Assembly: GCF_964204645.1 (NCBI RefSeq)
Contig: NC_134027.1
Coordinates: forward strand, 12,990,485 to 13,054,484
DNA: 64,000 bases
Direction of reading: 5' to 3'
Source: Tubulanus polymorphus
Taxonomy: Eukaryota > Animalia > Nemertea
Shown here one piece after another: positions 1-35,986 of the stretch. The notes beneath the pieces were generated by a model, which made no database searches, was not told the origin of the DNA, and saw nothing but the letters and a program-made list of their open reading frames with translations. How positions within the stretch are numbered: the first letter of the stretch is position 1; each line of letters begins with the position of its first letter. A program made the position numbers and the translations under genes.

Positions 1-656
1 TTAGTTACTGTGTCATATTCTAAACATATATTTGATAATTTATAACCCATATCTTTAACAACGCTAGATGATACAATTTCATTTACAGGAGCAAATGTTA
101 TCTCAAATATAATATCTTCTTGAATTGCGTATTTATATAAAGGCGCATTATTATTTATCAATTCAAAGTCTAATGGAATTTTATATTTGCTTCCATAAAT
201 CTTTTTAATCAAATTATCTGCGGCACGAGATACTATTGCGTCATTAGCTCCTGATCTTAATTTATTATGGTTTTCCGATTGAATATCCTGAAATATCATA
301 TTATTTCTATTTTCTTTAGTTAACCATAAATCTTTATAATGCATAAATAAATTATAATCATCTAATGAGAAAACTGTTTCTGGACCAATCTTTATTGTTA
401 ACTTTTTAATCAAATACCTTCCAACATTATCAACAACATAATTGTTATCATGGCCAGTTACTTTTATATCAGCTGACAAATAAATACTATTTGGAACATA
501 AAAAGTATTTTGTGTTAATCGAGGAATTCTAACATATAAAGTTTCATCGGGATTAATATTTGAAGGATTATGAGTAATTATATGATGTGATCTTTCTGCT
601 TTAATAGCATTAGATATTCTAGAAATCTTAGAAGGACTTATATAACTCCCACTCAT
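1..656 (-). CDS. Polinton major capsid protein, N-terminal part (runs off window)
   Basis: ATG at 656 in TAAATG context. Reads MSGSYISPSKISRISNAIKAERSHHIITHNPSNINPDETLYVRIPRL...VVDNVGRYLIKKL...YKDLWL...IPLDFEL...ICLEYDTV, motifs of invertebrate Polinton double-jelly-roll MCPs. Homologous to 32346..33454. Confidence 0.8.
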   Translation of the reverse strand, partial: MSGSYISPSKISRISNAIKAERSHHIITHNPSNINPDETLYVRIPRLTQNTFYVPNSIYLSADIKVTGHDNNYVVDNVGRYLIKKLTIKIGPETVFSLDDYNLFMHYKDLWLTKENRNNMIFQDIQSENHNKLRSGANDAIVSRAADNLIKKIYGSKYKIPLDFELINNNAPLYKYAIQEDIIFEITFAPVNEIVSSSVVKDMGYKLSNICLEYDTVT

Positions 657-677
657 TTATTTAACAAAAAAAGTTAA

Positions 678-2143
678 TTATTTATTTTTAATCATATTCA
701 CTAACCCAAAAATAATAGCACTTACAACTGTAATTAAAAATAAAATAATATGTTCAGCAGCAAAGTTAAGAATATTCCCAGCAGATTTCAATATAAAACC
801 AACAATTGATGCAATAATTCCTGGTAACGCTGCAGCAGATTTTTTAGATAGTTCCCATAAATATTTTGCTAATTTCTTTAAACCATGTTTAACTTTATCT
901 TGTATAGAATTATTATCATTCGGGTGTTTATCCGGTTTATTGGGAGTAGGAGTAGATTTCAAAGCATTTGATATTGCTAAACCAATTGTTGTAAATAACA
1001 TAGTTACAGCTGTTAGAATTGAAAGAATTGTTATTCCTTCTAATTTAAATAATAACTTTATTCTATCTTTCAATGATATTTCAGAATTTGGTTTTATCAA
1101 TAAATCTTTGAAAATAACTTTTAATCTATTAATATTATAATCATATGATTTTAATAATAATTTAATTTCTTCTTTTTGTAATTCTATGTTATATCCTAAA
1201 TAATCTTTTTCTTTTTCTAAACGTAATTCTTTTTGCCTATATTCTTTACTATTTATTTCATCAATTACTTGATGATCTAAATCAGACTTTAATTGTTCTA
1301 TTTCTTTATTTTTATCAGTTAATTCTTTTTCTAAAGTTCTAATTTTAAAATCTCTTATACTTTTATCATGCGCAATTTTATCAGATGCAAGTCTTATACT
1401 TTTAATTTCTCTAATTGCTTCAACAGAAAATATATTATTTAAATCTTCTAATTGTTGATCTGTTGCATCAATTAATCCATTCGGTAAAAGTTTTTCAATT
1501 GGAACTTTATTTGATTTAAGTTTACTAGTTTTGGAAGTTATATTCTGTTCAGAAGTAGTTTCTGTTTCTGATTTCTTTTTGATTATTTCAAATAATTCAT
1601 TAATTCTTTGTTTAAATACGTCTATATCATTATTAGTTAATTCTTGTTTTATAACATCAGTTATTACATTACTATTACTAATTCTTTTAATTCTATCTGG
1701 ATCTAATTTTCTCAAAGTTAATTTTGTTATTATTTTTTTTAATAAGTGATATCAATATAATAATCATCTTTCAAACGATAATAACATTTACCATTATCTA
1801 AAAATTTTAATCGATCTGCTAAAAGTCCAACGTCTTCATCATTTATGTTAAGTTTAGATTTTTCAATTAAATCTTCTAATTTAGTTATTTTGTTTAAATT
1901 ATCTAAATTTTCTCTTTCTAAACCTGGGTCTAAATTTTCAGGATTTATTCTCGATCTCTTTCTTCTATCAAATTCATCTGTTGATAGGCCTTTAGAACCA
2001 CTATCTGCTAAATTAGAATTATATGCTGATTCATCATCATTATCAATATTAGTTTCTGCATCATTATAATCATCATCAATATATCCTTCATTATTATTTC
2101 CCATGCCGTCCATTTCATAATCTTCTCCACCTTCTACATCCAT
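678..2143 (-). pseudogene. Polinton coiled-coil protein with acidic N-terminus and C-terminal transmembrane helices (frameshifted near 1720-1740)
   Basis: ORFs 1739..2143 and 678..1715 are continuous with homologue 30889..32322. Hydrophobic segments ITILSILTAVTMLFTTIGLAI, LPGIIASIVGFIL and IILFLITVVSAIIFGLV. Confidence 0.7.
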
Positions 2144-2159
2144 TTATATAATAGAAAAA

Positions 2160-3548
2160 TTAAAATTTAAAATATAATATTCCTCCTATAACAATTCCTA
2201 TACAAGTTAAAGCTAATTTAGTATTTTCATGGGATTTATTATCATCATTTAGTTTAATTATATCATGTTGAATATTATCAGTTTTAATATTTTCTGTAGT
2301 ATTGTAATCTTTTATTTTAGAATCATTATTTAATTTAATATTCTTAGTTTTAGTTTCTGTTGATTGAATGTGTTTTTAATTTTTTTCACCTTCCATTAAT
2401 TTTGGAGCAGTAATAATCTTTTTATTTATATCATTCAATCCAAATGAATTATTTATTGTTGCAGTTTTAATTAGATTATTATAACCAATTATGTTTCCCA
2501 TCTTTAATACTAAATCATTAGAAATAATTAATAGATTAGGTCCTATACAATAATTTAATCTAATATGTGATTTATCTAAATAATTTTGATATCTTACAAT
2601 GTTTTCTGGAATCGATCTATTTTTATCATTATGAATAGAATCTTCAAATAATACTTTGAATTGTTTCTGTGTATCAAATGATGTATTTAAATTTCCAATT
2701 ATTGGGGATCTTGTTTCAACTTGCGAACCTAAAATACATATCAAATAAGTTCTAATAGATTGATTTATTCTTTGTATAACTGATTTTGTAAAACCTTCAT
2801 TATTTTCTAAAATGAAATAAACCCAACCATTATTGTTTTCTTGTTTTGAATTATCATAACATTTCGGTAATTTATTGAAATTTAATGTTTCTAAATCCTT
2901 AGTTTCTATTTTACCATAACCTAATTTATTACTATAGATATTATAAAAACTATTAGATGGAATGGGAAGTGCACAATATTCTGCAATCTTTTTAGGGCAA
3001 GGAAGTGATCTTATTGTTCCAATTTTTGTTCTAAAATCAGAATTATTTATATCTATATTAAATTCATTACAAATTTTATAAAACTTTGATAAATTGATAT
3101 TATTATCTAATTCTTTAAAATACCTAGATCCTGGTAAAGCGCACTCTAATTCATTTAATATTATTCTGATTTGAAAGTATGCATGAAATCTAAATAAACT
3201 TTGAATCAATTTATATTTAGAATTATTCAAATGATCATTCCAACTAATTCCCCAACCTGTTGTTGCACAATAAACAGCAAAATTTAATTGGTTCTGCCAA
3301 TACTTCATATTAGATTTTAATAACCATTGTTTTTCATCTTTCAATTTTTTAAAATTGATTAAATATACATGAAATATATTTTCCATCTTTGCATTAAAAT
3401 TATTAGTTTCAGTAACATAAATTTCTAAATTAGTTAATGAATCTAAAACTTCATTTCTATATGTAATATCTTTATTAAAATCTATTGCTGGAATATTATA
3501 TTTAATTGATTTATTATATTGGAAAGCTTTTGGAAAACCATCTACCAT
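2160..3548 (-). CDS. Conserved Polinton protein of unknown function, with frameshifted hydrophobic C-terminal tail
   Basis: 390-aa ORF 2376..3548 with WQNQLNFAVYCATTG motif. Homologue at 29511..30871. Tail LALTCIGIVIGGILYFKF lies at ~2165-2220. Confidence 0.7.
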
Positions 3549-3980
3549 TTATTTTATTAATTCTTTTAATAATTTATCTTGTTCTTCAACTGTTATATGA
3601 CCATTTAAACTTATTATATAATCTAGTGTATTCTTCAATTTATTAATTTCTTTTATATTAGTTTTAATTTTTTCTTTATTACTTTTTATATTTAATTTTG
3701 AACTTATACCAGTTATAACACTTGAACTTAATCCTAATACACCAATTGAAATAGCTAAAGGTGTTAATGGACTGAATATTGCTAGAAATGTTATTACAGA
3801 ACTAATTGTAACCGAACCACTTATAATCAAATAATATATAATTTTACTTTTTTAATATTTTTTCTTTTTTATCTTTAGGTCACTTTCAAATTCTAATATT
3901 TGTTTTTCTAAATATATTTTTAATTTAAGTTTATTTATATCATGAGGAATAATATCAATACTATCAACTTTATCTTCCAT
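3549..3980 (-). CDS. Small Polinton membrane protein
   Basis: ATG at 3980, matching MDDKVD... at 29142. Hydrophobic hairpin ISSVITFLAIFSPLTPLAISIGVLGLSSSVITG flanked by Lys-rich coils. Confidence 0.65.
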
Positions 3981-3999
3981 TCATTTAGAAAAAAAATTA

Positions 4000-4422
4000 C
4001 TAATTAGTAAATTTATATGCTACAAATATAACAATAACAGTTCCACCTAAAATCCATATTATTTCATATTTCTTCTGTTCATTACTTGGGGTATAATAAT
4101 CTGATAATTTAGGTTTGTATAGATGTAATTTTTCTTTATTTGTTACTGCGTTATGTAAACTCATTGCATCATCAACTGATTGAAAATCTCTATGTGAAAT
4201 CTTCTGATCATATAATTCCTTGTTAATATAATCCATATAGTTTTGCCTCTTTTCTCTATATTCTTCTGCTGCTTTATTATATTTTTCTAATGCTAAGTTA
4301 TGTCTTCTTTGTTCTCCTAATGAACTATTTTTATCAATATGCTTAAATAAATAACCGCCACCAGTAAATGCTAAAGCGTTAACAATTGCTGATCCTATAA
4401 TAGTTATAATTGCAGAAGCCAT
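4000..4422 (-). CDS. Small Polinton protein with N- and C-terminal hydrophobic segments
   Basis: Intact 140-aa ORF MASAIITIIGSAIVNALAFTGGG...EQRRHNLALEKY...IIWILGGTVIVIFVAY with TAAATG start. Homologue at 28707..29122. Confidence 0.75.
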   Translation of the reverse strand: MASAIITIIGSAIVNALAFTGGGYLFKHIDKNSSLGEQRRHNLALEKYNKAAEEYREKRQNYMDYINKELYDQKISHRDFQSVDDAMSLHNAVTNKEKLHLYKPKLSDYYTPSNEQKKYEIIWILGGTVIVIFVAYKFTN

Positions 4423-4446
4423 TTATTTAGTAAAATAATTACGCAT

Positions 4447-4668
4447 TTATATGGGAGGAATATATTTTTGTTTTTCTAAATAATCAATAGTTAAATTAGA
4501 TAAAGTAACTGCTAATGTTAATTTTAAAATATCATTTATATCAAATCTATCAACATTAACACTTCCCATTTTGAATACCTTTTTTAATACCATTGAATAA
4601 TCAACAGTTCCAACTGATAGTAATGCTCCATTATATAATCCAGTTATTATCCACTTATTATCACTCAT
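4447..4668 (-). CDS. Small hydrophobic Polinton protein (73 aa)
   Basis: Intact and same length in both copies (28462..28683); TAAATG start. Confidence 0.75.
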   Translation of the reverse strand: MSDNKWIITGLYNGALLSVGTVDYSMVLKKVFKMGSVNVDRFDINDILKLTLAVTLSNLTIDYLEKQKYIPPI

Positions 4669-5010
4669 TTATTTATCAAAAAAATTACTATCATCAAAAT
4701 ATTTAGTTATCTTAGTGATGATTAATTCAACATTTATTTCATTGCTACTTTTATGATTATCATATATTTTGGTTAATATGTTTTTAATATCATCAATAAT
4801 TCCATCTTCATTTAATTCATAATATTCTAAAGGTGATTTAATTAAATCAATTACTTTTTCTATATTATAATTTTCTTTATTAATCATTGATGCATTGTTA
4901 AATGATTTACTTTTTATATCAGTAATTACATCATTTAGTTTAATTCTCATTTCTTTACCATGTTTAAAATCAAAACCAAAACATATACTCGGGCCAACAG
5001 TTATATTCAT
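4669..5010 (-). CDS. Polinton hypothetical protein (113 aa)
   Basis: TAAATG start. Homologue at 28110..28460 has conserved N-terminus MNITVGPSIxFGFDFK and C-terminus IITKITKYF. Confidence 0.65.
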   Translation of the reverse strand: MNITVGPSICFGFDFKHGKEMRIKLNDVITDIKSKSFNNASMINKENYNIEKVIDLIKSPLEYYELNEDGIIDDIKNILTKIYDNHKSSNEINVELIITKITKYFDDSNFFDK

Positions 5011-5026
5011 TTATATAGTGAAAAAA

Positions 5027-5793
5027 TTACTCTCTACACCTTATAACTAATTCATAAATTACAGGGAAATTATTTAAATCAATTAAGTATCCATTATGAT
5101 TTCTAATTTCTAATCTAAAATTATTAAAACGAGGAATGCATGGTTTGAAATCACATTCTGTTAAATTATAATTTATTTGCGTTCCAAATTCTTTAACATT
5201 CTTCAATGGTAAAATGTTTAGTAAACCAGAATTACAAGTTATATCTTTAGTTGCTTCGAATGTTTTTGTAGGATCGATTAAATTGCAATAAATATAAAAA
5301 TGTGAGTAAGGTATTAAGTTTGGTGTAACAGCATCAATATTTGTAAAAGATTTATCTGGAGGAATTCCTAACAGTTTAGCTATAGGTTTTTTTTAACCAT
5401 AAATGCATGTTTTTCACTATTAGACAACCTTATCTTTATTTTGTCAGTACTCTCACTTTTTAAAAATCTAATATTAAACCCGGAATTATTACCTGACTTG
5501 TGCCAGGCTTTTCTATTAATTTCTTGTGCCAATGTATCTAAATTATATAACCCCGGTTTTAAATATATATAAGCCCATTCATTTTTATTTTTATTAAAAA
5601 TTAAAAAAGCTCTATGTTCAATAGTTTTATCCGATATATTATAAAAAGAATTACATAAACTTATATTTACTAATTTTAAATCAACACAATTCTTAAATTC
5701 TCTATCTAATTGTACTAGTAAATTATGTGATTTATAATTTGTAAGTTTTCTAGAATCAACAATTATTCTGTATTCTTTTAATTCTACCATCAT
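5027..5793 (-). pseudogene. Polinton minor capsid (penton) protein, frameshifted near 5385
   Basis: Motifs NSFYNIS, KPGLYNLDTL, LAKLLGI, FYIYCNLID, LLNILPL and LEIRNHNGYLIDLNNFPVIYELVI are typical of Polinton single-jelly-roll minor capsid proteins. Confidence 0.75.
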
Positions 5794-5858
5794 TTATAAC
5801 ATAAAAAAATTACCGCTCATCACTAAAAATTAATTTTAATAAATTTTTTCCTAAATAA
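5794..5858. promoter_or_regulatory. Divergent intergenic promoter region between penton and Zn-finger genes
   Basis: 65 bp with a TAAATG initiator on each strand. Core TCACTAAAAATTAATTTTAAT is conserved in copy B (26994..27057). Confidence 0.55.
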
Positions 5859-7188
5859 ATGGATGAGAAGATAGAATGCGAAATTTGTGGTGAACTTCTA
5901 AAAAAGTAATATGGCTCGACATATGAAAAAACATGAAGAAAATTATAAACCCCCCAAACTAAACTGCCCAAAATGTAATAAATTATTCTCAAGAAATTAT
6001 GTTAAAAAATATTCGGAGAAGTGTAAAATTAATGGCGCAACGGTTAATGTTGATAGTAACGAAAGTAATAGTAATTCTGTTGAAGTTGAACCTGAAATTA
6101 TTTGGAAAAGACCTTTCTTATTCTATGATAAGGATAATATAAAAGATCATTTCTGTGAGCCTTGTCGAATAAAATATAGCCCTAAAAATTTAGAAGATTG
6201 GGAGAATCATCAATTTCGTAAAGTACATATAGATAAAATTTCTAATAAATTTGAAAGTGAATTCAATGAAAGAAAAAATAATTTATTAGAAAAAATAAAA
6301 TATGAGAAAACGTTACCAGATAATAAAGAAACAGTTGAAAAGTTAGAAAAACAATGTAATGAATTAACAAGAAAAACATATTATTGTAAATATTGTAAAT
6401 TGATTATTACAACAAGTAATTCAAATCTACATAATAGAACAAAAAAACATAAAGAAAACGTAAGAAAATACCAAGAGCTTAATGAAGATCTATTACCAAT
6501 ATATTATAAACGAAAATGTCCACAATGTAATTACGCGACCTTAAGACAAGAAGGTACTGTGTTATTTTGTGTTGATTGTGGATGGCAAAAGAATTTATGG
6601 GGTGAAGAAAAAACTAGAAATTTTCTCATAGAACCAAAATTAAATTATCTAGATGAAATTTTTAAAATATTTTCTATAGAAGATCATACACCAGAATATA
6701 TGCAATGGCTTGAAAAAATGAAAATAATAGAAAATAAAAATGGTGAAATAACTAAAAAAGATATTATAAAAACAATTATTCCGTCAACATTTGATACAAA
6801 ACAAAAGAAAATGTATTTATATTTATTATTCAACGATTATTATGAAAAACCTAAATTAACAGAAAAAGATATGGAAAATAAAAAAAAAATATTTAAACAA
6901 ATATTAATGTGTTATTTGGAAAATAGAATAACAGATTCAATAAATTATGAATTCTTTTTAAATAAGATTGTAAATTATTTAAACATCGATATTATAATTC
7001 CATTTGACGAATTAACGAACAAAAACAAACAAAGAGAGCGAGATGAAATGCGGAACAAGATAGAACTTTATTTAAATGAGAAAAATGAAATGGAAGAAGA
7101 AGCTAAACAAATTATACAAGAACAATTAAATGAAAATGAAGAAGCCAATAGTGATTTCGAGTATGATGATATTGATTTTATGTTTTAA
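5859..7188 (+). CDS. Multi-C2H2/C4 zinc-finger protein of the Polinton (frameshift near 5900)
   Basis: CEICGE..MARHMKKH, CPKCNK, CEPC..HQFRKVH, CKYC..HNRTKKH and CPQC..CVDC. Convergent with pPolB. Homologue at 25452..26993. Confidence 0.8.
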
Positions 7189-10100
7189 TGGCCATAAGGT
7201 AATGTATTTATACCATCATCTGAAATATGTCTTTTATCATCAAATGGATTTAAACTAGTTTTTTCAACTTCATTAATGTACATCTCGTGATCTTCTGATC
7301 TTAAACAATTCATTTTATGTTTCATTACAATTGAGTTATATAAACACATTATATAATCTTGAAATTCTATATGTTTATCAGCCACATATTTTGTTATTCC
7401 TTTTAACTTTTTAGCTTCATGATCTTTTGTCCTATATCTATACATTTTACTTCTTATCCCAACAAATTCAATCATTTCATCACCCCCTAATTCATCTTTA
7501 AACTTACCAGGAATCTGTTTATTATCATTGCTAAATAGTTCATGATCTTTGGGATAATTGCTAAAATCAAAATGATGTTTTAATCTTTTTAAGTCTTTTG
7601 TTATGTCATTTGTCTTGATTTTTAGTATGTACGCATCGGTATTTTTTTGGATTAATGGGAACCCAGAATTGAATGTTCCATCATCTGTTGATGAATCATA
7701 AACATAGTCAGTTGGGTTATATATTTCAAATAAATCTTTAACTTCTTCAGTTAAATCTTTTTCTACATGCCTTAAATTAAAACAATTTGGTTTAGATTTA
7801 ATTAATTCTATATTCATATTAAATCCTAATGAACTGCATAATATATTCAATCCTGATATAGCAACTTTTCCTTTTTGAGCAAAGGGTATTGTTTTGCGGT
7901 TTTGGAAACTTTTTGAACCATCTGCAGCATAGAATCCAATGAAGAACCATTTTCTTAAATTATTTTTTGCATTTAATATATAATCTGGCACTATCTTTTC
8001 TTTTGTTGAAGTATTACTTTTAACTATTGCATGAATATAGAATTCATCATTATATTTTATAGCAAAATCTTTAGGATTATTTACAAGTATTCTATAAACT
8101 GCTGTTGATTTCATAACATCCATGACTTTAAATGTTTTATTTGGATAAACTTCTTCACAGAATTTCTTAATTCTTTCTAATAATTTTAAGTCTTGATTGC
8201 ATAAATACCAACAATATTTATTACCCCAAACATAATTATACACACCTGCTGAACCATCACCCATGAAAAATCCTTTGATAAAATATTCTTTTTCTTCTAA
8301 TGTTTCGGGTTCTATATTATAAATATTATCAATAATTTCGTCGAATGGCATATGATTCATTCTTTGGAAAAATCTTTTATGTAATAATTCATCTCCAATT
8401 TTTATATCAGTTCAGTTATTTCATCGCCATTTCGTTCAATTAAACTATGATCTTCTGTAACATCTACAAATCCTAATTTAGTTCTAACTCTATAGATTTT
8501 CTTATTTGTTTCATGTCTAATAATATTCTTTAATTTTTTCCATCCATTTCTTGTCCAAACATCCATTAATCCATTTATTTGTATTAATTCTTTTTCACCA
8601 TACGAAATATAACATTCATTTTGTTTTGGAATTATTTCTGAAATTCTTCTTATCAATATTTTATCATTACATTTTAATAATATTGGGGTGTCAGCTGTTA
8701 CAGAATCAAAATATAATATTTCAATATGCTTTTCCCCAAAAAGTGGTTGTAAAACATTATAATAAAAATCATACATTAATAATTTTGATACTTCTAAAAC
8801 AGTTGAACCAATGAATATAGGTTTATTAAATTTCATTGACGTTCTTTTTAATTTAACTGCTGTTAAATAATCTTCAAATCTTTATTTCCTAAATGTCTAG
8901 GACTTGATTGTAAATGTCTTAATCTTTCAGAATTATTTACTAATTCAATATCATTTCTATTTCTAATATTTTCACATGTTTTACCATAAAAACTATTGTT
9001 CATTAATTTAAAAAAATCTTTTTCAAAATCTGTTTTTGATATGGTCCTCTGTTGAGTATTAAAATCTATATATTTTTCTAACCACTTCGATTGATTAAAT
9101 TCAATATATCTATGTACTTTCTTTAATTTCATTCCTTGTTTTAGATAAAATTTTAACATTCTATAATGAACGATATAATTGTATTTATTATTTTGAGTAA
9201 GTATTAATTTTTCTGTAAAAACATGATCTTTCGGTTTTATTTTCTTCTGGTATTCACTTAAATAACTATCATCTACAGTTAAATGTTCTGGGCAATAAGG
9301 TAAGTTTCTTGTTTTAAACTTTATATTTTCAGGATATTCTAAATCAACTACAAAGAAATAACCAATTGGTGCTTCATCTTTTAAACTCGCAATTGCGCTT
9401 TTTCATCATTTTCAACTTCTGTTAATATAAAATTTTTATGTGGTTGAGGTTGCATCATTGCCCAACCATATAAATTATTGGCGTCAATATATAATAATTT
9501 ATATTCATCATTTGCTTTAAAATACCTATCTCCCATAACACCACTAATTCCACCTCTAATTGATTTTTCAAATAATAAAACCATATCTGGTTCTTTTAAT
9601 AAATCTAATTCTACATTTGTATATTTTAAACCACATTGCCAGGTTAAACCAGGACTAGAGTAGCAATAACAAGGATCAACATTAAAATGATTCAAATTAA
9701 CTTCTCTAAATTTTTCAAATATGTCAGCCAATATCATAACATCTGATTTTAAATATAAATCAACTAATTCACCATGATTTTTCATCTTAAAATGGTTCCA
9801 AATATTTAATGTTCTATTAAACACTTCGTCTTTCACATACTCCTCTTTTAATTGATCATAAAATTGATCTTTTAGTAATTCTGTTACATTAAAATCATTG
9901 TGTGTTTTATAAAATGAATAAGGAATTGCGCCTTTATATCTCAATAATTTAAAATCTTGGTCATTTGGATAATAATATCGAGTTATTATAAAATCATTAT
10001 CAACTAAACTGTTTGATAAATTATCTAATGAACTTGCTAGAAATCTATAAGAATCTAAAAATCTAATGCAACCAAATTGAAATGAAATATAATTTTCAGA

Positions 10101-11860
10101 TGTTTTAGCTAATAGTTTAAAATCATATTTTCTTACATTTACACCATTCATAGCATTATATTCTTCTATTTCTTGATTAATTGTGCCCAATTTCCCTGAT
10201 AATTGTTTTATAAATAGATGGGTATCATAGCCTGATAGATTATGAAATAATATTGGTACGAAATTAACTTTCTTAGCTTGTAAATTGCAATCTTCATGAG
10301 CAGCTCCACGATATTTTGAATTTAAATGATCATGATCTCTAACTTTTTTATCAAATGAATAAAAACGTTTTTCACAATAACAACAATGAGTTGCATAATT
10401 AAAATCAATTTCATCTTCTTTTGTCATAACTATTCTTTTATTTTTGTTTAATAATTTTACAAAATCACTTTCTAATTCAATCATTTTATCACAAAAAAAT
10501 CATTAACTACATTTTCACCTCTAAAAGAAATATATTGATTTCATATAATTCAGGATAATTTGATTTTATATAAATTCCATAAGCAGCAGCTCTTTGATGA
10601 ACTTTTTTAATTGTATTTATAATTGGCGGGTCTTGTATTGTGTCTTCATTTAATTCATTTCCTTTATCCATTGATTTTAATAATTGCTTTTTGTTATATA
10701 TTTCTTTTCTATCTTGATCAGTTAATTCTTTATTCAACGATTCAAAATCCCCATAAATTACAAATGGAACAATATTCTTAAATTTATGATTTGTAAATTT
10801 CAATTTATTATCTTTTTCTGTTGGCATTATTAATTTACAAAAATCTTTGTTATCACATAATTCTTTATGCTTTAGTAACGCATTCGCAGTTCTAAATTTA
10901 GATAAACATTTTCTACATAGATAAATTTTATGACTGTTAAAATAACTTTCTGTTCTAAAGAATAAATCAATTTGTTTTAACCACATTTAATGTTCATTTT
11001 CATCTTTTTTTGTAATATAACAAATCTATAGCATTTTCATCATCATAATATTCTGTTAAATATAGAGCTTCCAATGTATAATCTTTAATATTTTCACCTT
11101 TTGTCTTTGGTAATTGCATTAATTCGAATATATTTATTTTTAAATTATTAATTTTTTCTATGTTGGGTATCATTTTTATAGTTACTGGATATTGATCAAT
11201 TTTATATAATGTTTCATATTTCCGGTAATTTGTTATTCTAAAACTATGTGTAATATCTTCTGTTGGGTGTAAGCAACTAATAATTGACCATAGAAAACAT
11301 TTATTATCTTCATTTTGAACATTTATTACTGCTTTTGTTGTAAATGGTAATTTAATATAACTTGATGCTTTAATATCCTTTTCTGTTGTAAAGTTTGAGT
11401 CATTTTCAAACATTGTTTTACTTTTTGATGTTTTATTCTTTTTTGTATTATAAACATTTAAATCTAAAAATATAATTCCATTCAATGTTAAACCAGAACC
11501 CTCAAAATATCTCTCTTCAATATGACGTTTAAATTCATTAAATATTTTTTCTAACTTCTCTTTTATTTGCGTTTTTGAAATTATTTCTTCAGAGAGTGTT
11601 TGAATATTATAATCCATTTTATCTTCTGACTTTATAAAACTTACTTTCCCAGAGATACTAATTTTTGGATATTCAACATCTGTTATCAAATGTAGTATTT
11701 TTTCTATTATTTCATTAAATTTACTATAATCTTCTATTGTTGTTCCTTTAAAGAATCTAAATATAATAGCCGCAGGACTAATTTTACTATGTAATGTTTC
11801 TAAAATTTCAATTGTATCTTTTATTTCTAGTGAATCAATATAATTTCTAACATTTTCCAT
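7185..11860 (-). pseudogene. polB: Protein-primed family B DNA polymerase (pPolB), several frameshifts, intein-containing
   Basis: N-terminal SSYIKLP..VINVQNEDNKCFLWSI region; ExoI YGDFES; endonuclease-VII-like insert CCYC..DHDHLNSKYRGAAHEDCN; ExoII FHNLSGYD; ExoIII YLKSDV; motif A YIDANNLYG; motif B KLMNNSFYGK; split motif C YFD|TD; C-terminal GKFKDE, GIRSKMY, KLKGI and DDKR. Confidence 0.95.
7641..8704 (-). mobile_element. Intein with LAGLIDADG homing endonuclease inserted in pPolB motif C
   Basis: Block A SVTADTPILL starts at 8704; block B VDVTEDHSLI; LAGLIDADG motifs FIKGFFMGDGS and FFIGFYAADGS; block F YVYDSSTDDGTF; ends QKN (7641), followed by +1 Thr (TDA). One frameshift near 8410. 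Confidence 0.92.
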
Positions 11861-11875
11861 GTAAGGTAAATGGAT

Positions 11876-12232
11876 TTAATTTTTGAAGTTGGTTTTTTTT
11901 ACTTCTTGAGGTTTATCATCAAAATAATCTTTTCCTAAAACATTATTACTCAAATTTTGATGGTGTTTTTGTGATTCGAGATGTCTATTATAATTCCTTT
12001 TTACTAAAAATTCATTACAAACTTCACGTTTTATTTCATCCACATTCATATTTTCTAATCGTTCTTTTCTTTCATTGGAATTTTCTGGAGTTTCAAAATC
12101 TATTACATTTTTTATATGATTTGCAGATTTTTCATGTTTAGATTTATTAGATTTATCAATGTATTTTTTACAATATGGACAATGATATTGATTTTCATTA
12201 ACATCAATTTGTTCTGTCTTATTCTCTCCCAT
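11876..12232 (-). CDS. Small C2H2 zinc-finger ORF, possibly the frameshifted N-terminus of pPolB
   Basis: YHCPYCKKYIDKSNKSKHEKSANH and VCNEF..RHLESQKH; TAAATG start just inside the terminus. Confidence 0.6.
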   Translation of the reverse strand: MGENKTEQIDVNENQYHCPYCKKYIDKSNKSKHEKSANHIKNVIDFETPENSNERKERLENMNVDEIKREVCNEFLVKRNYNRHLESQKHHQNLSNNVLGKDYFDDKPQEVKKTNFKN

Positions 12233-12246
12233 TTATAAGGAAAACA

Positions 12247-12572
12247 AATTACTTGTGGTGATGAGTGGGGATTACTTCCCCCTGTATATAACAAACACGC
12301 TATTAACCGTTCTCACCCAAGCCTCACAGCATCTATTTATCCGGGTACAGTTGACACGCAATCACTGTACTACTACAGTAATAGCACACGCGTTAATAAC
12401 CGTTCTCAGTAGATACTCACTGTATCGATCTATCCACGCGCAGATGTTGTTACGCGCACTCACTGTATATATGTATCACAGAGCAATCGTCCGTTCTCAC
12501 TAGAGCCTAGCTGTGATGAGTGGTGTCTCGTACTCTCGTACTCTGGTATGAAAACGCCATTTCCTAATTACT
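12247..12572. repeat. Terminal inverted repeat of Polinton A (PolB-side end), with an extra 244-bp segment
   Basis: AAATTACTTGTGGTGATGAGTGG...CTAATTACT matches 37908..37979. The extra segment 12269..12512 is flanked by the direct repeat GTGATGAGTGG. Confidence 0.75.
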
Positions 12573-19146: not shown

Positions 19147-19204
19147 ATTCGACGTGGAGTAGATAAGCGACGCGACACAGTTCTCGTAAGCTAGTGATGA
19201 ATAC

Positions 19205-20145: not shown

Positions 20146-20899
20146 AATTGTCGCCAGGATGCTGCCGTAGAAAGATGAAGTGTTTAATAGAACATTAAAT
20201 ATTTGGAATCATTTTAAGATAAAAAATCGTGGTGAATTAGTAGATTTATATTTAAAAACAGATGTTATGATATTGGCCGATATATTTGAAAAATTTTGAG
20301 AAGTTAATTTGAATCATTTTAATGTTGATCCCTGTTATTGTTATTCAAGTCCTGGTTTAACCTGGCAATGTGGTTTAAAATATACAAATGTAGAATCAGA
20401 TTTATGAAAAGAACCAGACAAGGTTTTATTATTTGAAAAATCAATTAGAGGTGGAATAAGTGGTGTTATGGGAAATACAATTATATTGTTCATTATAGAA
20501 TGTTAAAATTTTATCTAAAACAAGGAATGAAATTAAAGAAAGTACATAGATATATTGAATTTAATCAATCGAAGTGGTTAGAAAAATATATAGATTTTAA
20601 TACTCAACAGAGAACCATTTCAAAAACAGATTTTGAAGAGATTTCTTCAAATTAATGAATAATAGTTTTTATGGAAAAACATGTGAAAATATTAGAAATA
20701 GAAATGATATTGAATTAGTAAATAATTCTGAACGATTGAGACATTTACAATCAAGTCCTAGACATTTAGGAGATAAAAGATTTGAAGATTATTTAACAGC
20801 AGTAAAATTAAAAAGAACGTCAATGAAATTTAATAAACCTACATTCATTGGTTCAACTGTTTTAGAAATATCAAAATTATTAATGTATGATTTTTATTA

Positions 20900-23868
20900 T
20901 ATTAGGTTGGGGGAAAGTGGTACACGGGGGAATGTGGGACAGGTTCACTTTGAGACTAGCTGGTGCTGACATCTTGAAGCAGTTAGTATAACTAACACAC
21001 AGAATGTACTTGTGCAACACCGTAAGCGTGTTACAAGTTGAAAACTTTTTGCTGTACACGAAAAAAAATCATTTTAGTCGATTTACACCACATAGCCTCA
21101 TTTTAGGACCCTGGAAATTGTACCTATAGTAAGTATAACATCTTTAGAAAAATATTACACGTACATTACAATGATTTTAAATTTCAAATGTGCTTTATAA
21201 GCATTGTAATACATGTCAACTGTATACCACAGCACTCTAGTACTGATTATCTATGCATGGCTCTTCTACAGCATGGGTTGCATATGTACGGTGTCCTGTG
21301 AGGGCCAAATTCTCAAATATGGGGGGGGGGGGGGGTACAGTGTTTAATTGAAAAAAAACTTGTCAGGAAATGCTTCTTATCCACATTCAATGTTTATAAT
21401 AAAGCAAAACAAAGTTTTCAACATGAATCAGTTAATGAATCGTATATTTTTGAAATAGGCAATTAATAGAAATAAATTATTTGATGGATATTTTTTAGGT
21501 GTCCCACATTCCCCCATTACCATATTTCTGATAAAATTCGTATTTTATTTCAGCAAAGATGCCTAGAAATTATAAACGGAAGACAGAACAAGTTAACTGG
21601 GATGATGATGATATGAAAATAGCCATTGTCAGTTGTAAAGATGGGCAGATGTCATACAGCGAGGCTGCAGACATTTTCAAGGTCCCGCGTTCTACATTGC
21701 AGCGTCATGCAACAGGAAATGTGAAGAAAGTAGCTGGATCTAAAAAACTTGGAAGAGATTGATTATTGACAATACAACAAGAGAATGATTTAGTGAAGTA
21801 CATATTTGAGTTTGAGGAGCGCGGTTTTCCTCTAACCAAAAAAAAAAATGTTCAGGTTTTGTCAATTGCAAGGGCAATACATATGAATAAGCCCCTTGTA
21901 GAACAGTTCTTTAAGCTTCAGGACACTGTTTATGCTCAAGCTAAGGTTTTTGGGAATCCAAGTAGGGTATATAACACAGATGAGTCTGGTTCAAGTCTTG
22001 TACCGGGGGTCAAAAAATTGTAGGTAAGAAGGGTAAGAAGGATTCTAACCAAATAACTTCGGATGAAAGAGGCACACTGATAACAATAATGATTTGCTGC
22101 AATGCAGCTGGGGACTTTGTCCCACCTACTGTTATTTATTAGGGTAAAAGGCTTCCACCCCATCTTGTTGAAAATTTGCCGCCGTACACATTAGTTCTTA
22201 TGTCGGAAACGGGATATATGAACAAAGACCTGTTTCTGAAATGGTTAGAACATTTTAATACACATAAGAAAGACAAAGATGGCAAATCTGTTTTAATTAT
22301 AGATGGTCACAAATCGCATACTATGTCAATGGATGTAATCGACTATGCTAGCACCAACAATGTCGAACTTGTCAGTTTCCCACCCCACACCTCACATGTT
22401 CTCCAGCCTATGGACATCGTATTTTATAAACCAGTAAAAGAATACTTCAGAGACAATGTGAGAAAATATCTTAGAAATAATCCTGGTCAACGTTTACGCG
22501 AAACAATTTTCCACAAGTCTTCCAGGACACATACATTAAAGTTGCAACGATGGAAAATGCTGTCACCTCATTCGGAAAGACAGGATTATACCCTTTGAAG
22601 ATTGATGAAATACCTTAAATCTGCATGCCTACAGAAACTACAGCTATTCCAACAGAGGTATTGGAAGATCAAGAGGTTGTAGAAAACCAAATGAATGTTG
22701 ATGTTAACATGAATGAAATTCCACTGGCAAAACCTACTAATGAAAATGTGAGTGAAGAAAATGAGATTTAAACTGAGGATGGTGAGACCGTTCAAACTGG
22801 AGAACCAAATGTTTCTGGTGATCTAACTGCTTCAGTGGAGGCAGTGGCTGACAAAAGTCTGACAGAGTCAGCTAGTGAGGCATCATTCCATGATATACTA
22901 CCCTTACCAAAAAGGATTGTGAAAGAAAAGTCCACTCGGAACACTTTCAAAGCAGGGTCAAAACTCTTCCCAAGTCCCAAGTATAAAGCAGATCTACAGA
23001 ATTTTAGGGATTTACAGAAAAAGAAAGAAGAAACAAAAATAAATAAAGCTAAGGAAAGGAAAGAAAGGAAATAAACAGCAAAGGAAAGGAAAGGGTGTGG
23101 CCAAAAAGGTGGGTTGGCCAAAAAAGCAATAAAAGCCAGTTGTCGGCACAAGCAGCGGTTGGTAGTGCAATAGCCTCAGGTTCTGGAGTTCAGGGGAAGA
23201 AAAAGAAAAAGCAGATAACATCAGATGACATTGACAGAGATAACCCAGAAAATATATGTGGTCCTTGTCAAGGAAATTACTTTGAGGATGACTCCGACGA
23301 CACAGAGGGGTGGATCAAGTGTCCCAGCTGCGATATTTGGTTCCATGAAACGTGTGCAGGGGTTTTTGGTAAATCTATGTATGATCTGTGAAGAGTGTGC
23401 TGGGTAGTTATAAATGTGTAATCTTACAATTTAAAGGCACTATTAAGATTATGTAATATGGAATTCTCTTTACAAACCTAAAATCATAGAATTATTAATC
23501 GTGGGGTAATGTGGGACAAGATGGGGTAATGTGGGACACCTCTTAAAGATAAAGATTGGTATGATTTTGTCAAGTCAATTATTGTTTTCTGTCAAAATAA
23601 AAGCAGTTTAACCAACATTTTATAGTTGTTTATGAATCTATAGACCTGTCCCACTTTCCCCCAAGTGGGGTAAAGTGGGACAATCTGGGTACTCTACTCC
23701 AGGGGGACCTGGTTGCTAGGGTATACTAGATGTTTGACCTTGTTGCATTTCAAAGTTTAAGAATATTGAATAGCATCGTCCTCAGCAAAACTCGCCATAA
23801 TATCTCATGCGGTGTTGCCACCATATTTGAATATCTAGTTAGCTGTCCCACTTCCCGCCACCCTACTA
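20900..23868 (+). mobile_element. pogo/Tc1-mariner-superfamily DNA transposon (HTH-psq, DDE_1, PHD), defective
   Basis: TIRs TATTAGGTTGGGGGAAAGTGG / CCACTTCCCGCCACCCTACTA. Removing the element and one TA restores the pPolB DFYYNV codons. Protein motifs MPRNYKRK, YNTDESG, LIIDGHKSH, PPHTSHVLQPMD, and PHD CGPC..WIKCPSCDIWFHETC. Confidence 0.9.
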
Positions 23869-23925
23869 TATAATGTTTCACAACCACTTTTTGGGGAAAA
23901 ACATATTGAAATATTATATTTTCAT

Positions 23926-24998
23926 TCTATAAGAGCTATTACCCCAATATTATTAAAATACAATAACCAAATATTAATTCGAAGAATTACAGAAATAATT
24001 CCAAAACAAAATGAACTTTATATTTCATATGGTGAAAAAGAATTGATACAAACAAATGGATTAATGGATGTTATGTCAAGAAATGGATGGAAAAAATTTA
24101 AGAGTATTATTATATTATTAGGCATAAAACAAATAAGAAAATCTATAGAGTTAGACCTAAATTAGGATTCGTTGATGTTACTGAAGATCACAGTTTAATT
24201 AAACAAAATGGTGATGAAATAAAACCAACTGATATAAAAATTGGAGAAGAATTATTACATAAAAGATTTTACCCAAGAATGGATCATATGTCATTTGATG
24301 AAATAATTCATAATATTTATAATAGAGAACCTGAAACATTAGAAGAAAAAGAATATTTTATTAAAGGATTTTTTATGGGTGATGGTTCAGCAGGTGTGTA
24401 TAAGTATGTTAATCACACTCAATATCGTTGGTGTTTATGCAATCAAGATTTGAAATTATTAGAAAGAATAAAGAAATACTGTGAAGAAGTTTATCCAAAT
24501 AAAACATTTAAAATCATAGATGTTATGAAATCATCAGCAGTTTATAGAATACATGTAAATAATCCTAAAGATTTTGCAATTAAATATAATGATGAATTCT
24601 ATATTCACGCAATAGTTAAAAGTAATACTTCAACTAAAGAAAAGATAGTACCAGATTATGTATTAAATGCAAAAGATAATTTAAGAAAATGGTTCTTCAT
24701 TGGATTCTATGCTGCAGATGGCACTAAAAAATTTACAAAACAGAAAACTATATCTTTGACACAAAAAGGAAAAGTTGCTATATCAGGATTAAATATATTA
24801 TGCAATTCATTAGGATTTTATATATTAGTTAATATTAGAAAGGATAAACCAAATGTATTTCAATTAACGCATGTAGAAAAAGAATAAACAGAAGAAGTTA
24901 GAGATTCATTTGAAATATATAACCCAACAGATTATGTTTATGATTTATCAACTGAAGATGGTACATTTAATGGTAGATTTCCATTAATCCTAAAGAAT
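23926..24998 (+). mobile_element. Orthologous LAGLIDADG intein in pPolB of copy B (degenerate)
   Basis: SIRAITPILLK...VDVTEDHSLI...FIKGFFMGDGS...FFIGFYAADGT...YVYDLSTEDGTFNGRFPLILKN|TDS; same insertion site as in A. Confidence 0.9.
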
Positions 24999-25451
24999 AC
25001 TGACAGTTACATACTAAAAATCAAGACAAATGACATAACAAAAGACTTAAAAACATAAACATCATTTTGACTTTAGCAATTATACAAAAGATCATGAATT
25101 ATTTAGCAATGATAATAAGAAAATTCCAGGTAAATTCAAAGATGAACTGGGGGTGATGAAATGATTGAATTTGTTGGGATAAGAAGCAAAATGTATAGTT
25201 ATAGAACAAAAGATCATGAGGCTAATAAGTTAAAAGGAATAAAAAAGCATGTGGTTGATAAACATATAGAATTTCAAGATTATATGAAGTGTTTTTATAA
25301 CTCAATTGTAATGAAACAAAAAATGAATTATTTAAGATCAGAAGATCACGAGATGTACATTAATGAAGTCAAAAAAACTAGCTTAAATCCATTCGACGAT
25401 AAAAGATATATTTTGGGTGATGGAATAAAAACATTACCTTATGGCCATTAA

Positions 25452-26993
25452 AAAAGAAAATCAATATCATCATACTCGAAATCACTATTGGCTTCTTCAT
25501 TTTCATTTAATTGTTTAGGTTCCTTCATTTCATTTTTCTCATTTAAATAAAGTAAAGTTCTATATTATTCCACATTTCATCTAGCTCTCTTTTGTTTCTT
25601 TTTGTTCGTTAATTCATCAAATGCAATTATAATATCGATGTTTAAAAAATTTAAGATCTTTTTTAAACAGAATTCATAATTAATTGAATCTGTTATTTTA
25701 TTATCCACATAATAATTTAATTTTAATAGTTTGTGGATTTTCTTTTATATTTTCCATATCTTCTTCTGTTAATTTAGGTTTTTTATAATAATCGTTAAAT
25801 AATAAATATAAATACATTTTCTTTTCTTTTGTGTTAAATGTTGATGGAATGATTGTTTTTATTATATCTTTCTTAGTTATTTCACCATTCTTATTTTCTA
25901 TCATTTTCATTTTTTCAAGCCATTGCTTATATTCTGGTGTATGATCTTCCATAGAAAATATCTTTAAAAATTTCATCTAGATATTTTTATTTTGGTTCTA
26001 TAAGAATATCTCTAGTTTTTTTCATCACCCCATAAATTTCTTTGGCATCCACATTCAAATATCACAGAATCTTCTTGTCTTAAGTACACATAAATACATT
26101 GTGGGCATTTTTTTCTATCATATCTTGGCAATAGATCTTCATTAAGTTCTTGGTATTTTCTTACATTTTCTTTATGTTTTATCGTTTTATTTTGTAGATT
26201 TGAATTACTTAATGTAATAATCAATTATCAATAATCAATATCTCTAGTTTTTTCATCACCCCATAAATCTCTTAGCCATCCACATTCATTACAAAATATC
26301 ACAGAATCTTCTTGTCTTAAGTACACATAAATACATTGTGGGCATTTTTTTCCATCATATCTTGGCAATAGATCTCCATTAAAGTTCTTGGTATTTTCTT
26401 ACGTTTTCTTTATGTTTTATTGTTTTATTATGTAGATTTGAATTACTTGTTGTAATAATCAATTCACAATATTTACAATAATATGTTTTTCTTACTAATT
26501 CATTATATTGTTTTTCTAACTTTTCAAGTGTTTCTTCATTATCTGGTAACGTTTTCTGGCATCTTATTTTTTCTAATATTTCATTTTTTCTTTCATTGAA
26601 TTCTGTTTCAAATTTATTAGAAATTTTATCTATATGTGCTTTACGAAATTGATGATTTTCCCAATCTTCTATATTTTCAGGGCTATATTTTATTCGACAA
26701 GGCTCTTTCATATTAATCTTTTCATAGAATAAGAAAGGTCTTTTCCAAATAATTTCAGGTTCAGTTTCAACAGAATTAATATAACTTTCGTTACTATCAA
26801 CATTAACCGTTGAGTAATTAATTTTACACTTCTCTGAATGTTTTGTAACATAATTTCTTGAGAATAATCTATTACAATTTGGGCAGTTTATTTTAGGGGG
26901 TTTGTAATTTTTATCATGTTTTTTCATATGTCGAGCCATATTACTTTTTCTTTGAAGTTCACCACAAATTTCACATGGTATCTTCTTTTCCAT
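25452..26993 (-). pseudogene. Zn-finger gene of copy B, with a ~232-bp internal tandem duplication
   Basis: MEKKIPCEICGELQRKSNMARHMKKH. AATATCTCTAGTTTTTCATCACCCC recurs at ~26005 and ~26237. Confidence 0.8.
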
Positions 26994-27057
26994 TTATTAA
27001 GGAACAATTTAATTAAAATTAATTTTTAGTGATTCGAGGTAATTTTTTGTGTTATAA

Positions 27058-28093
27058 ATGATAGTTGAATTAAAAGAATATAGAATATTTGTTGATTCCA
27101 GAAAACTCACAAATTCAAAATCACATAATTTACTAGTACAATTAGATAGAGAATTTAAAAATTGTGTAGATTTGAAATTAGTAAATGTAAGTTTATGTAA
27201 CTCTTTTTATAATGTATCAGATAAAACTGATGAACATAGAGCCTTTTTAATTTTTACAGATCTAAATTCGAGCACATTATACCTATATTGCGTGAGCTGC
27301 ACTGGCTACCAGTCGACGCCAGGATTAAGTACAAGGTTATGTTGCTGACCTGCAAAGCTCTCACTGGCTCCACCCCTGTATATATCAGTGAACTTATTCA
27401 AGTCTACATCCCTGCTCTTACATTACGTTCGGCTAATCAGCACAAGTTAGTTGAACCCACATACCGTTTGTGTAATTTTGGAGGAAGAAAATTTTCACGG
27501 TGTACACCCAGACTCTGGAACCAATTCATTGACTCTCATCGAAAGGTTCTTGATATGTCGCCGGTCCAATTCAAGTCTCCCCTCAAAACAGTACTTTTCC
27601 GTGCATTCTATGACACTCCAGGGGAGCGCTTTTGAACTTTGCCTTTTTGACATGGAATTACAGCGCTTTAAAAGTGTTATTATTATTATTATTTAGGGAT
27701 AAAAAAAAGTATGCTTTCGGGGTAAAAAAACCATTAGCTAAACTGTTAGGAATTCCTCCAGATAAAATTATTGTCAGAGGAAACATAGAAGGTAGATCAA
27801 ATTTAATGCATTTTACACACTTTTATATTTATTGCAATTTAATTGATCCTACAAAAACATTTGAAGCAACTAAAGATTCAACTTGTAATTCCAGTATAAT
27901 AAATATTTTACCATTGAAAAATGTTAAACAATTTGGAACACAAATAAACTATAATTTAACTGAATGTGATTTCAAGCCTTGTATTTCAAAATCTAATAAT
28001 TTTAAATTAGAAATAAGAAATCATTATGGTTACTTAATTGATTTAAATAATTTTCCTGTAATTTATGAATTAGTTTTAAGATGTAAAGCGTAA
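27058..28093 (+). pseudogene. Minor capsid gene of copy B, interrupted by a LINE fragment
   Basis: Homologous to 5027..5793. The central part (including the PGLY region) is lost at the LINE insertion. Confidence 0.75.
27258..27693 (+). mobile_element. 5'-truncated LINE 3' end (CR1/L2/Crack group)
   Basis: GC-richer island encoding EHIIPILRELHWLPVDARIKYKV...RKFSRCTPRLWN..FKSPLKT, ending in a (TAT)n tail. Confidence 0.85.
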
Positions 28094-28109
28094 TTTTCGC
28101 ACTTAATAA

Positions 28110-31100: not shown

Positions 31101-32322
31101 AGATAATTTAAACAAAATACCTAAATTAGAACGTATAATTGAAAATTCTAAACTTAACATAAATGATGAAGACGTTGGACCTTTAGCAGATCAATTCAAA
31201 TTTTAAGATAATGGTAAATGGTATTACCATTTGAAAGGTGATTATTATATTGATATCACTTATAAAAATAATAAAAATAAAATATTAACAAAATCAACTT
31301 TTGAGTGATTTAGATCCAGATAGAATTTAAAGAATTAGTAATAGTAATGTAATAACTGATGTTTTAAAACAAGAATTAACTGATAATGATAAAGACGTAT
31401 TTAAACAAAGAATTAATGAATTATTTGAAATAATCAAAAAGAAATCAGAAACAGAAACAACTTCTGAACAGAAAATAACTTCCAAAACTAGTAAACTTAA
31501 ATCAAATAAAGTTCCAATTGAAAAACTTTTACCGAATGGATTAATCGATGCAACAGATCAACAATTAGAAGATTTAAATATATTTTCTGATAAAGCAATT
31601 AGAGAAATTATTAGTATAAGAAATAAAGCTGATAAATTTGCACATGATAAAAGTATAAGAAATTTTTAAATTAGAACTTTAGAAAAAGATAGCACTGATA
31701 AAATTAAAGAAATAGAACAATTAAAATTAGATAGAGATGATAAAGTTATTGAAGAAATTGAATTTAAAAAAAGAAATGCATATTTAGAAAAAAAAAGATG
31801 ATTTAGAATATAACACAGAATTACAGAAAGAAGAAATTAAATTATTATTAAAATCATATGATTATAATATTAATAGATTAAAAGTTATTTCTAATGATTT
31901 GTTGATAAAACCAAATCCTGAAATATCATTGAAAGATAGTATAAAATTATTATTTAAACTAGAAGGTAACACAATTCCTTCGATTCTAACAGCTGTAACT
32001 ATGTTATTTACAACAATTGGTTAAGCAATATCAAATTCTTTAAAATCTACGCCTACACCCACTAAACCGGATAAACCACCAAATAATGATAATTCTATAC
32101 AAGATAAAGTTAAAGATGGTTTAAAGAAATTAGCAAAATATCTTTGGGAACTATCTAAAAAATCTACTGCAGCTTTACCCGGAATTATTGCATCAATTGT
32201 TGGTTTTGTTTTAAAATTTGCTGGGAATATTCTTAACTCTGCTGCTGAACATATTATTTTATTTCTAATTACAATTGTCAGTGCTATTATTTCTGGGTTA
32301 GTGAATATGATAAAAAATAAAT
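28110..32322 (+). pseudogene. Copy B cluster of small, membrane and conserved Polinton genes (homologues of 678..5010)
   Basis: Starts at 28110, 28462 (intact 73 aa), 28707, 29142, 29511 and 30889. Multiple stops and frameshifts, plus a deletion fusing the 29142 gene to the next. Confidence 0.8.
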
Positions 32323-32345
32323 AATTAATTTTTTTTGTTAAATAT

Positions 32346-33454: not shown

Positions 33455-33502
33455 CATAGTATTCAATATTAGAAATATAAAGTTAAAATTAACGATATAT
33501 AA

Positions 33503-35430: not shown

Positions 35431-35986
35431 GACATTATCATCAACTGGGGTTATAACATTTTCAAATATTGAAAGTAAAAGTTTTCTATGATAAATGAGC
35501 GAAGTGCGAGAGGTGAAAGAATTAACTGTGAAGAAAAAACCGGGATTACCGAAACAAATTGAAAGGTCTCGGCAATTAGGAATTAAATTACAAGAATTTA
35601 AAAAAGCTATAAAAGAAAAAATAAATAATGAAAATGTTAATGATAATGGTGAAAATATTGTTATTTCTACATATTTCTATATTTGATATTAATAATTCTG
35701 AAACTACTACTGTTGAAATTCCAAAGTTCACTATAAAAAATGGACTAATATTTTAGAAAAAAAGAAAAAAGAATAATTTCATTTTTAATTGATTGAATAT
35801 CTCACTACTTTTGTCTATCTACGCGGAGCAATTAAATTGTCCAGATAAGTCATTTCGGATTCTAGATATTCATTATTTTTATTATCAATTTATTTTTTTA
35901 AATCCTTCTATTACAGTAGCTTAAATTTGCTGATATTTTATCTCCATATTTAGTTTTTATCTTTTCTAATTTTAATATTTTATATT

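Follow-up and report, generated by a model that had tools for sequence, protein, structure and literature searches.

A pol-c-type intein in the protein-primed DNA polymerase of a Polinton from the ribbon worm Tubulanus polymorphus

Catalytic motif C of a Polinton protein-primed B-family DNA polymerase (pPolB) is interrupted by an insert in Tubulanus polymorphus, and the locus raises the question of what this insert is, whether it lies in animal DNA and how it came there. The insert was evaluated within the window, i.e., the whole stretch of 64,000 nucleotides that was analysed. An earlier note had claimed a full LAGLIDADG intein that jumped from a virus into the Polinton of an animal. The insert in the first Polinton of the window (copy A) is almost certainly a real intein in an animal-integrated Polinton.

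The insert and the Polinton copies of the window

The borders of the copy A insert were defined by translation of the minus strand. The insert comprised 1064 nt, or about 355 codons with one frameshift near 8405-8415, and split motif C as ILYFD/SVTADTPILL from 8704 and PLIQKN/TDAY with the Asn ending at 7641. According to the profile searches, the N-terminal piece matched TIGR01445 (intein_Nterm) at 35.3 bits against a curated cut-off of 24.5, and the C-terminal piece matched PF14528 (LAGLIDADG_3) at 29.2 bits against 22.5. The N-terminal Hint region was aligned to the intein alignment A7 with an hhalign probability of 99.9. Pfam Intein_splicing gave no match on the separate pieces of copy A and a weak match on the second Polinton, copy B (E 0.0047); the relative P0002, taken whole, matched this profile (PF14890) at 42.4 against a cut-off of 35.8. 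Hence, the profile search proposed by the earlier note bore out the full intein, and its TEDH block B, two LAGLIDADG motifs and block F were all located in the translated insert. The coordinates are summarized in the table.

Table. Features of the window, with the evidence on which each was placed.
Feature	Position	Strand	Evidence
Full pol-c-type intein (Hint and two-motif LAGLIDADG) of Polinton copy A, Ser1 to Asn	7641..8704	-	translation, profiles
N-terminal Hint region: block A SVTADTP and block B VTEDH (8447-8458)	8420..8704	-	TIGR01445, hhalign
LAGLIDADG motif 1 FIKGFFMGDGS, acidic residue retained	8250..8282	-	translation, alignment
LAGLIDADG motif 2 FFIGFYAADGS, acidic residue retained	7914..7946	-	PF14528, alignment
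C-terminal Hint region: block F DYVYD (from 7709) and block G PLIQKN	7641..7709	-	translation, alignment
End of N-extein, first half of motif C (LYFD)	8705..8716	-	translation, colinear with P0001
C-extein from Thr+1 (TDAY) to polymerase stop	7185..7640	-	58% identical to P0001
Polinton copy A, continuing past the left end of the window; capsid-like gene at 3-656	1..12300	-	ORFs, profiles
Protein-primed PolB gene of copy A, broken into seven open pieces	7185..12232	-	PF03175; colinear with P0001
TAAATG start with T-rich run upstream, before copy A pPolB; poxvirus-late-like look	12230..12252	-	motif scan
Polinton copy B, inverted relative to copy A: pPolB, capsid-like gene, candidate rve integrase, A32 ATPase	20170..35990	+	profiles
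Intein at the matching site of copy B, ending PLILKN/TDSY	23926..24998	+	translation
TMEM121 gene of the host, which ties the window to the worm genome; single-copy depth reference	47666..48664	-	profile, identity

The class-1 splice residues were all present in copy A (Ser1, the TxxH motif TEDH, the Asp of block F, the terminal Asn and Thr+1), and the two LAGLIDADG helices carried their acidic catalytic residues (MGDG and AADG). The penultimate residue was Lys, which replaced His; the ends of 96 extracted inteins of the family were HN in 60, KN in 31 and SN in 5. A Hedgehog-type Hint domain was rejected for the insert because both a nuclease and a C-extein nucleophile were found.

The seven polymerase pieces of copy A were colinear with P0001, an intact relative of 1693 aa, and the piece at 9381-10499 matched PF03175 (E 2.8e-13). 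The same reading frame contained an HNH/endonuclease-VII-like zinc domain at about 10280-10410 on the minus strand (PF02945, E 0.0052, below the cut-off). The pPolB of copy B was broken by a 3-kb insertion at 20901-23869. The second insert that had been claimed at the equal site of copy B (KN/TDS) was recovered there, with a decayed N-junction, its own frameshift and a stop. Neither window copy can splice now because both are broken. Among the other genes of the element, the A32-like packaging ATPase of copy B matched PF04665 at 29.6 bits against a cut-off of 22.8, and matches below the cut-offs were obtained for the retroviral-type integrase (rve, E 8.7e-4, on a broken gene) and the capsid-like gene (Capsid_N, E 0.0013). 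An adenain-like protease gave no match among the ORFs scanned in the window. Terminal inverted repeats or a 6-bp target duplication were absent from the listed repeats of the window, which copy A leaves and in which copy B is rearranged.

Further repeats and remnants were observed around the two copies. A more distant Polinton polymerase fragment at 37980-39006 on the minus strand (78-80% DNA identity) was cut just before motif C and was caught in a near-perfect tandem triplication of 385 nt at 38061-39213. A tandem array of about ten 72-nt units at 19138-20131 adjoined the left end of the copy B polymerase fragment. The 399-nt direct repeats (98%) at 35987-37787 surrounded a DUF1759 gag-like ORF (36394-37329), which fits a small LTR retroelement, and a further DUF1759 ORF was located at 12824-13465. 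The inverted AT-rich remnants at 51144-52131 and 55000-58155, with small ORFs starting TAAATAAATGG, are probably parts of a third Polinton family.

Relatives, alleles and divergence of the intein

The relatives of the intein were collected by two protein searches, which returned nine proteins. P0001 (JGI, 13-kb contig) contained a 354-aa intein (residues 1184-1537) at YGD/SVT...SN/TDS. P0002 (ENA), which was part of a pPolB from a second lineage, contained a 347-aa intein, and the insert was in frame in both. P0005, assigned to this second lineage as well, headed an ENA cluster of 55 members; the 15 members listed included many fragments and lay on contigs of at most 825 kb, and this cluster looks like a second multi-copy family in a genome. 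Mini-inteins were absent among the pPolB hits of the protein searches. The AlphaFold model of the intact relative P0005 had a pLDDT of 93.5 with an alignment of 70 sequences (51 with a seven-sequence version), and a complete nuclease-bearing Hint fold is predicted from it. The best PDB matches of the model were TliVMA, PhoVMA, PI-PfuI, PI-SceI and I-DmoI, the last with an rmsd of about 2.5 Å over about 176 columns, and its best named BFVD matches were giant-virus DNA polymerases. A sequence search of the PDB gave weak intein matches (best E 0.0034).

An exhaustive search with P0005 gave 2118 proteins at E 0.001, the best 150 of which were compared. Among these best 150, the pPolB N-extein matched none and the C-extein matched one, and 12 short homologues (56-89% identity) appear to be additional fragments from the pPolB group. 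The 27 homologues that were checked with Pfam carried PF00136 in 19 cases, topoisomerase II in three, Xrn in one, a PolB exonuclease only in one and intein domains only in three; PF03175 was carried by none of them. Intein homologues inside type II topoisomerase and Xrn-like genes (P0036, P0098, P0131, P0163, L013 and L024) indicate that the family jumps between sites, i.e., by non-allelic spread. In IMG/VR, the family was found at 17 and 7 loci with 25-51% identity, several of which were labelled GVMAG. Shorter pol-c inteins of 188-257 aa, likely with a reduced nuclease, were observed in four IMG/VR virus polymerases (L001, L002, L004 and L016). Pattern scans of viral_contigs, metagenome_contigs and genome_contigs yielded no Polinton-type relative; these blanks are weak because the scans require exact short words.

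The window is ribbon-worm DNA since its TMEM121 gene was 100% identical to LOC141901917 of T. polymorphus on a 27.8-Mb contig. Run X6, which came from a different sample under the same species label, supplied the raw reads for a rough estimate of the copy number. The single-copy depth of 7.5 was the median of nine hand-picked low-depth bins, and the mean depth at 85% likeness was 206 for the intein and 359 for the flanks (seven bins each). The estimate was about 27 intein-filled copies and about 48 copies overall per genome, figures that are inflated by partial matches and for which the thresholds differed between the two read mappings. The estimate rests on X6; X5 (small share) and the summed contig depths of X1 and X2, which do not represent copy numbers, were left out, and X1, possibly the source of the assembly, was not counted as an independent sample. 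At least 33 X6 reads (24 + 9) joined the flanks without the insert and left precisely 9 letters between 7631 and 8705, the spacing of an in-frame empty motif C. Hence, filled and exact empty alleles coexist in the species, and the survey of intein-plus and intein-minus alleles that the earlier note had called for found both types, the natural empty alleles giving the colinear, in-frame motif C expected once the insert is removed. The break of copy A was missing from most X6 reads.

The divergence between copies A and B was evaluated over 253 comparable codons of the C-terminal piece, in which 50 of 99 differences were at third positions. The dN/dS value was 0.36, and that for the first 200 codons of the piece, mostly nuclease, was 0.38. 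A neutral control, in which the same substitutions were placed at random, gave a mean dN/dS of 1.06, and none of 2000 draws was as low as 0.36. Judged by these codons, the intein including its nuclease was under purifying selection while the lineages of the two copies replicated. Between P0001 and P0002, the identity was 47% for the intein and 48% and 50% for the flanks; between the window and P0001, it was 61-68% for the intein and 58-69% for the flanks. Moreover, GC3 was 0.12-0.16 in the intein and 0.12-0.19 in the flanks. The similar identities of intein and flanks, together with the level GC3, indicate that the capture was single and old. The equal identities between lineages fit long co-descent, with no sign of recent homing. 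Furthermore, the capture is common to the wider polymerase lineage (P0001, P0002 and P0005), which argues against a recent event in this worm. A recent jump into T. polymorphus was thus rejected, the divergence of intein and flanks being about equal across lineages.

Mechanism, donor and alternative readings

The observations are probably explained as a whole by a pol-c intein in a Polinton pPolB that would splice and home when intact and that likely descends from one old capture from a large DNA virus. In standard class-1 intein chemistry, an acyl shift at Ser1 is followed by transfer to Thr+1 and by cyclisation of the Asn. In an intact precursor, the intein would be spliced out and the catalytic Asp pair of the polymerase would be restored. 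Empty motif-C sites would be cleaved by the LAGLIDADG nuclease and then mended on the template of a filled Polinton genome, so that the intein would be copied by double-strand-break gene conversion. Its position in the active site blocks imprecise loss. Both window copies are fossils of this cycle and are dead now.

The same single entry may have been followed by inheritance with the polymerase alone, the intein being kept for splicing and the nuclease no longer homing. This reading would account for the matching divergence of intein and flanks across lineages, the level GC3 and the persistence of empty alleles beside filled ones. It is nevertheless unlikely, although it carries some weight, because the acidic residues of both LAGLIDADG motifs were kept in all pPolB rows shown, the mostly nuclease codons had the low dN/dS given above and the pPolB hits included no mini-intein. 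A cycle of splicing and homing in intact copies is therefore preferred.

The donor was explored with trees of inteins cut out by motif, in subsets chosen by hand; the trees were unrooted and had no named archaeal or Mimivirus sequences. The pPolB inteins formed one clade in every whole-intein tree (14 of 107, 12 of 75 and 8 of 61 rows, with support of 100/99 for the last). In the careful tree of 61 rows, this clade was joined by the asfarvirus-like P0054 (99/89) and then by P0070 and P0172 (94/90). P0054 was long-branched and compositionally odd, and the link of the clade to P0070 and P0172 stayed at 93 in a tree without it. The best match of the P0054, P0070 and P0172 polymerases was PDB 8ywg (E 1e-76 to 1e-115), an entry tied to the African swine fever virus polymerase in the available part of PMC11417396. 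A one-residue gap in block G followed by Pro was common to the pPolB, Pol-delta-like and T4/RB69-like PolB inteins, and AU tests rejected neither the asfarvirus-like nor the block-G-type grouping (p 0.92 and 0.81). Twelve asfarvirus-like PolBs with pol-c inteins were observed (P0054, P0058, P0070, P0071, P0082, P0095, P0096, P0107, P0137, P0138, P0141 and P0172), which scattered over the tree and did not form one clade. A firm asfarvirus donor was not adopted in view of the block-G gap and Pro, the scattered inteins and the AU tests. The intein probably derived from a large eukaryotic DNA virus, with asfarvirus-like viruses nearest and several donor families remaining. In this respect, the phylogeny that the earlier note had proposed placed one pPolB clade among the pol-c inteins of large DNA viruses but did not single out the donor family.

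A phage or prokaryotic polymerase of the T4/RB69 type, met for example in a bacterivorous protist before Polintons reached animals, was considered as the donor. Two polymerases with the same pol-c intein family were observed, P0034 and P0038; the latter was most like RB69/T4 gp43, so the family also reaches phage-type PolBs. The inteins of both end in G-x-P-L-I-V-K-N, as do the pPolB inteins, and a Hint-only tree placed P0034 beside the pPolB inteins, weakly (50). Against this, the whole-intein and nuclease-only trees favoured asfarvirus-like neighbours, and the same end was found in the Pol-delta-like virus PolBs P0035, P0039 and P0040. Moreover, only one of 50,697 phage records matched (27%), no plasmid record did, and a pattern scan of GTDB genomes, which had low sensitivity, was empty. 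A phage donor is hence rather improbable, and a large eukaryotic DNA virus is retained.

In the preferred reading, a single ancient capture would have brought the intein over from a large DNA virus that shared the cell and carried it in its polymerase. The capture may have taken place in a cytoplasmic virus factory, where helper replication would bring donor and recipient DNA together, as suggested by the TAAATG gene starts and the asfarvirus-like nearest relatives. TAAATG began 9 of 17 Met-started ORFs of at least 60 aa in one copy and 8 of 23 in the other; elsewhere, it was found at 2 of 28 ORFs in the window at 40-64 kb and at 7-8% of all ATGs. The pattern TAAATAAATGG occurred 8 times versus 0.22 expected and a longer promoter pattern 10 times versus 0.75 expected, for patterns written after seeing the data and with the chance figure taken from the whole, less AT-rich window. 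At many Polinton gene starts (1-12300 and 23860-35990), TAAATG followed a TAAT-T-run at a distance of about 14-18 nt, an arrangement that resembles poxvirus late promoters. According to the accessible text of PMC4542343, late and intermediate genes of poxviruses use TAAAT, placed at the start codon, as their initiator. These starts hint, at the level of sequence motifs, at a helper-virus route for the capture. Since donor and recipient DNA must meet for homing to occur, the intein is a sign that an animal Polinton and a large DNA virus came into contact; this sign is relevant to whether the Polintons of animals are viruses that depend on a helper. The jump from virus to Polinton and into an animal that the earlier note had proposed stands insofar as the nearest inteins are viral and the element lies in a worm chromosome, but the capture is old and shared by the wider lineage.

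That the insert is a nuclease domain which was domesticated and does not splice, comparable to the HNH and VSR inserts of Polinton polymerases, is very improbable; such inserts are known (Jeong 2023, in the part available) and the penultimate His of copy A is replaced by Lys, but the insert parts the halves of catalytic motif C with all splice-junction residues present, the complete Hint fold is predicted for P0005, exact empty alleles exist and 31 of the 96 ends are KN. Contaminating DNA, or free virus DNA joined in by misassembly, would fit the Polinton being far more AT-rich than the surrounding DNA but has a negligible chance, and contamination, the subject of a check raised by the earlier note, was rejected because the window contains a worm gene, host transposons are nested in copy B, the copies have decayed and have retrotransposon and DDE pieces within or beside them, and the separate sample X6 has both the intein and the worm gene; the window DNA is animal chromosome.

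Comparison with known systems

The literature on inteins and Polintons was compared with the present case. Inteins are absent from metazoan genomes and those of viruses occur in Nucleocytoviricota according to the available part of Green 2018 (PMC5784728), in agreement with the near-absence in metazoan genes that had been claimed; inteins of free animal-infecting iridoviruses are known (PMC549080, in part). Searches of the main texts of openly accessible papers found no Polinton and no protein-primed polymerase described as having an intein, and the claimed lack of a described case thus held there. The word 'intein' did not occur in the available portions of Starrett 2021 (PMC8502044), bioRxiv 10.1101/2023.10.16.562556, PMC13215967, PMC11131425 and bioRxiv 2026.10.13.758929, and those of PMC12220804 and PMC3671162 contained general mentions alone. 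The case may tentatively be the first of a homing intein in the nuclear genome of an animal and in any protein-primed polymerase, with some copies still competent for splicing and cutting and the Polinton a virophage in the factories of a pox- or asfar-type virus of marine invertebrates, whose polymerase would have supplied the intein, although this fuller claim is doubtful. Splicing and homing can be tested directly on the natural intact alleles and the exact empty sites.

The HNH and VSR nuclease inserts of Polinton pPolB2 (Jeong 2023) resemble the worm polymerase, which also has an HNH-type insert (PF02945, below the cut-off). In the available text of that work, these inserts have no described Hint domain ('intein' and 'Hint' occur 0 times), whereas the worm insert is a complete intein in the active site. 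Nuclease inserts of Polinton polymerases were speculated to be perhaps intein relics in the part at hand of Krupovic 2024 (PMC11071308), and the worm intein is the Hint-bearing case that was missing from this idea of intein invasion. Gallot-Lavallee 2023 (PMC10710043), in its accessible sections, describes intein-carrying endogenous viral DNA polymerases from Klebsormidium, Tetrabaena and a labyrinthulomycete. Those cases and the worm Polinton are intein-bearing viral polymerase genes on eukaryotic nuclear DNA; the hosts there were algae or a protist, with polymerases termed viral-like in view of giant-virus integrations, whereas the host here is an animal, with a self-copying Polinton and both filled and empty alleles. 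Here, the chromosomes of an animal contain a full intein, with the copy number put at two to three dozen, although its carrier is a virus-like element rather than a host gene.

The worm element is like Polintons/Mavericks (adintoviruses; Starrett 2021, in part) in its pPolB, A32 ATPase and chromosomal integration, and putatively in its rve integrase and capsid-like gene, for which the matches were below the cut-offs. The Polinton-like viruses in entomopoxvirus occlusion bodies, which swap genes with their helper according to the available part of bioRxiv 10.1101/2023.10.16.562556, show by precedent that genes can pass between a helper poxvirus and a Polinton-like element in animals. The pol-c site is YGD/TDS of PolB in the portion at hand of Ogata 2005 (PMC549080), and the YFD/TD of the worm fits it as claimed, with homologues at YGD/TDS and the nearest inteins in Nucleocytoviricota-type PolBs. 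The pol-c intein of Mimivirus R322, as described in that portion, occupies the same site (YxD/TDS) and has 351 aa compared with 347-355 aa for the pPolB inteins. The pol-c inteins of Nucleocytoviricota and archaeal PolBs, like the pPolB inteins, have Ser1, Asn and Thr+1, the TxxH motif and a LAGLIDADG nuclease, and the pPolB inteins were 30-44% identical to metagenomic giant-virus-type inteins. The pol-c references lie in primer-dependent PolB (PF00136), whereas the worm intein lies in protein-primed PolB (PF03175) with many copies on animal chromosomes; the pol-c allele now extends over the deep divide that separates primer-dependent from protein-primed B polymerases.
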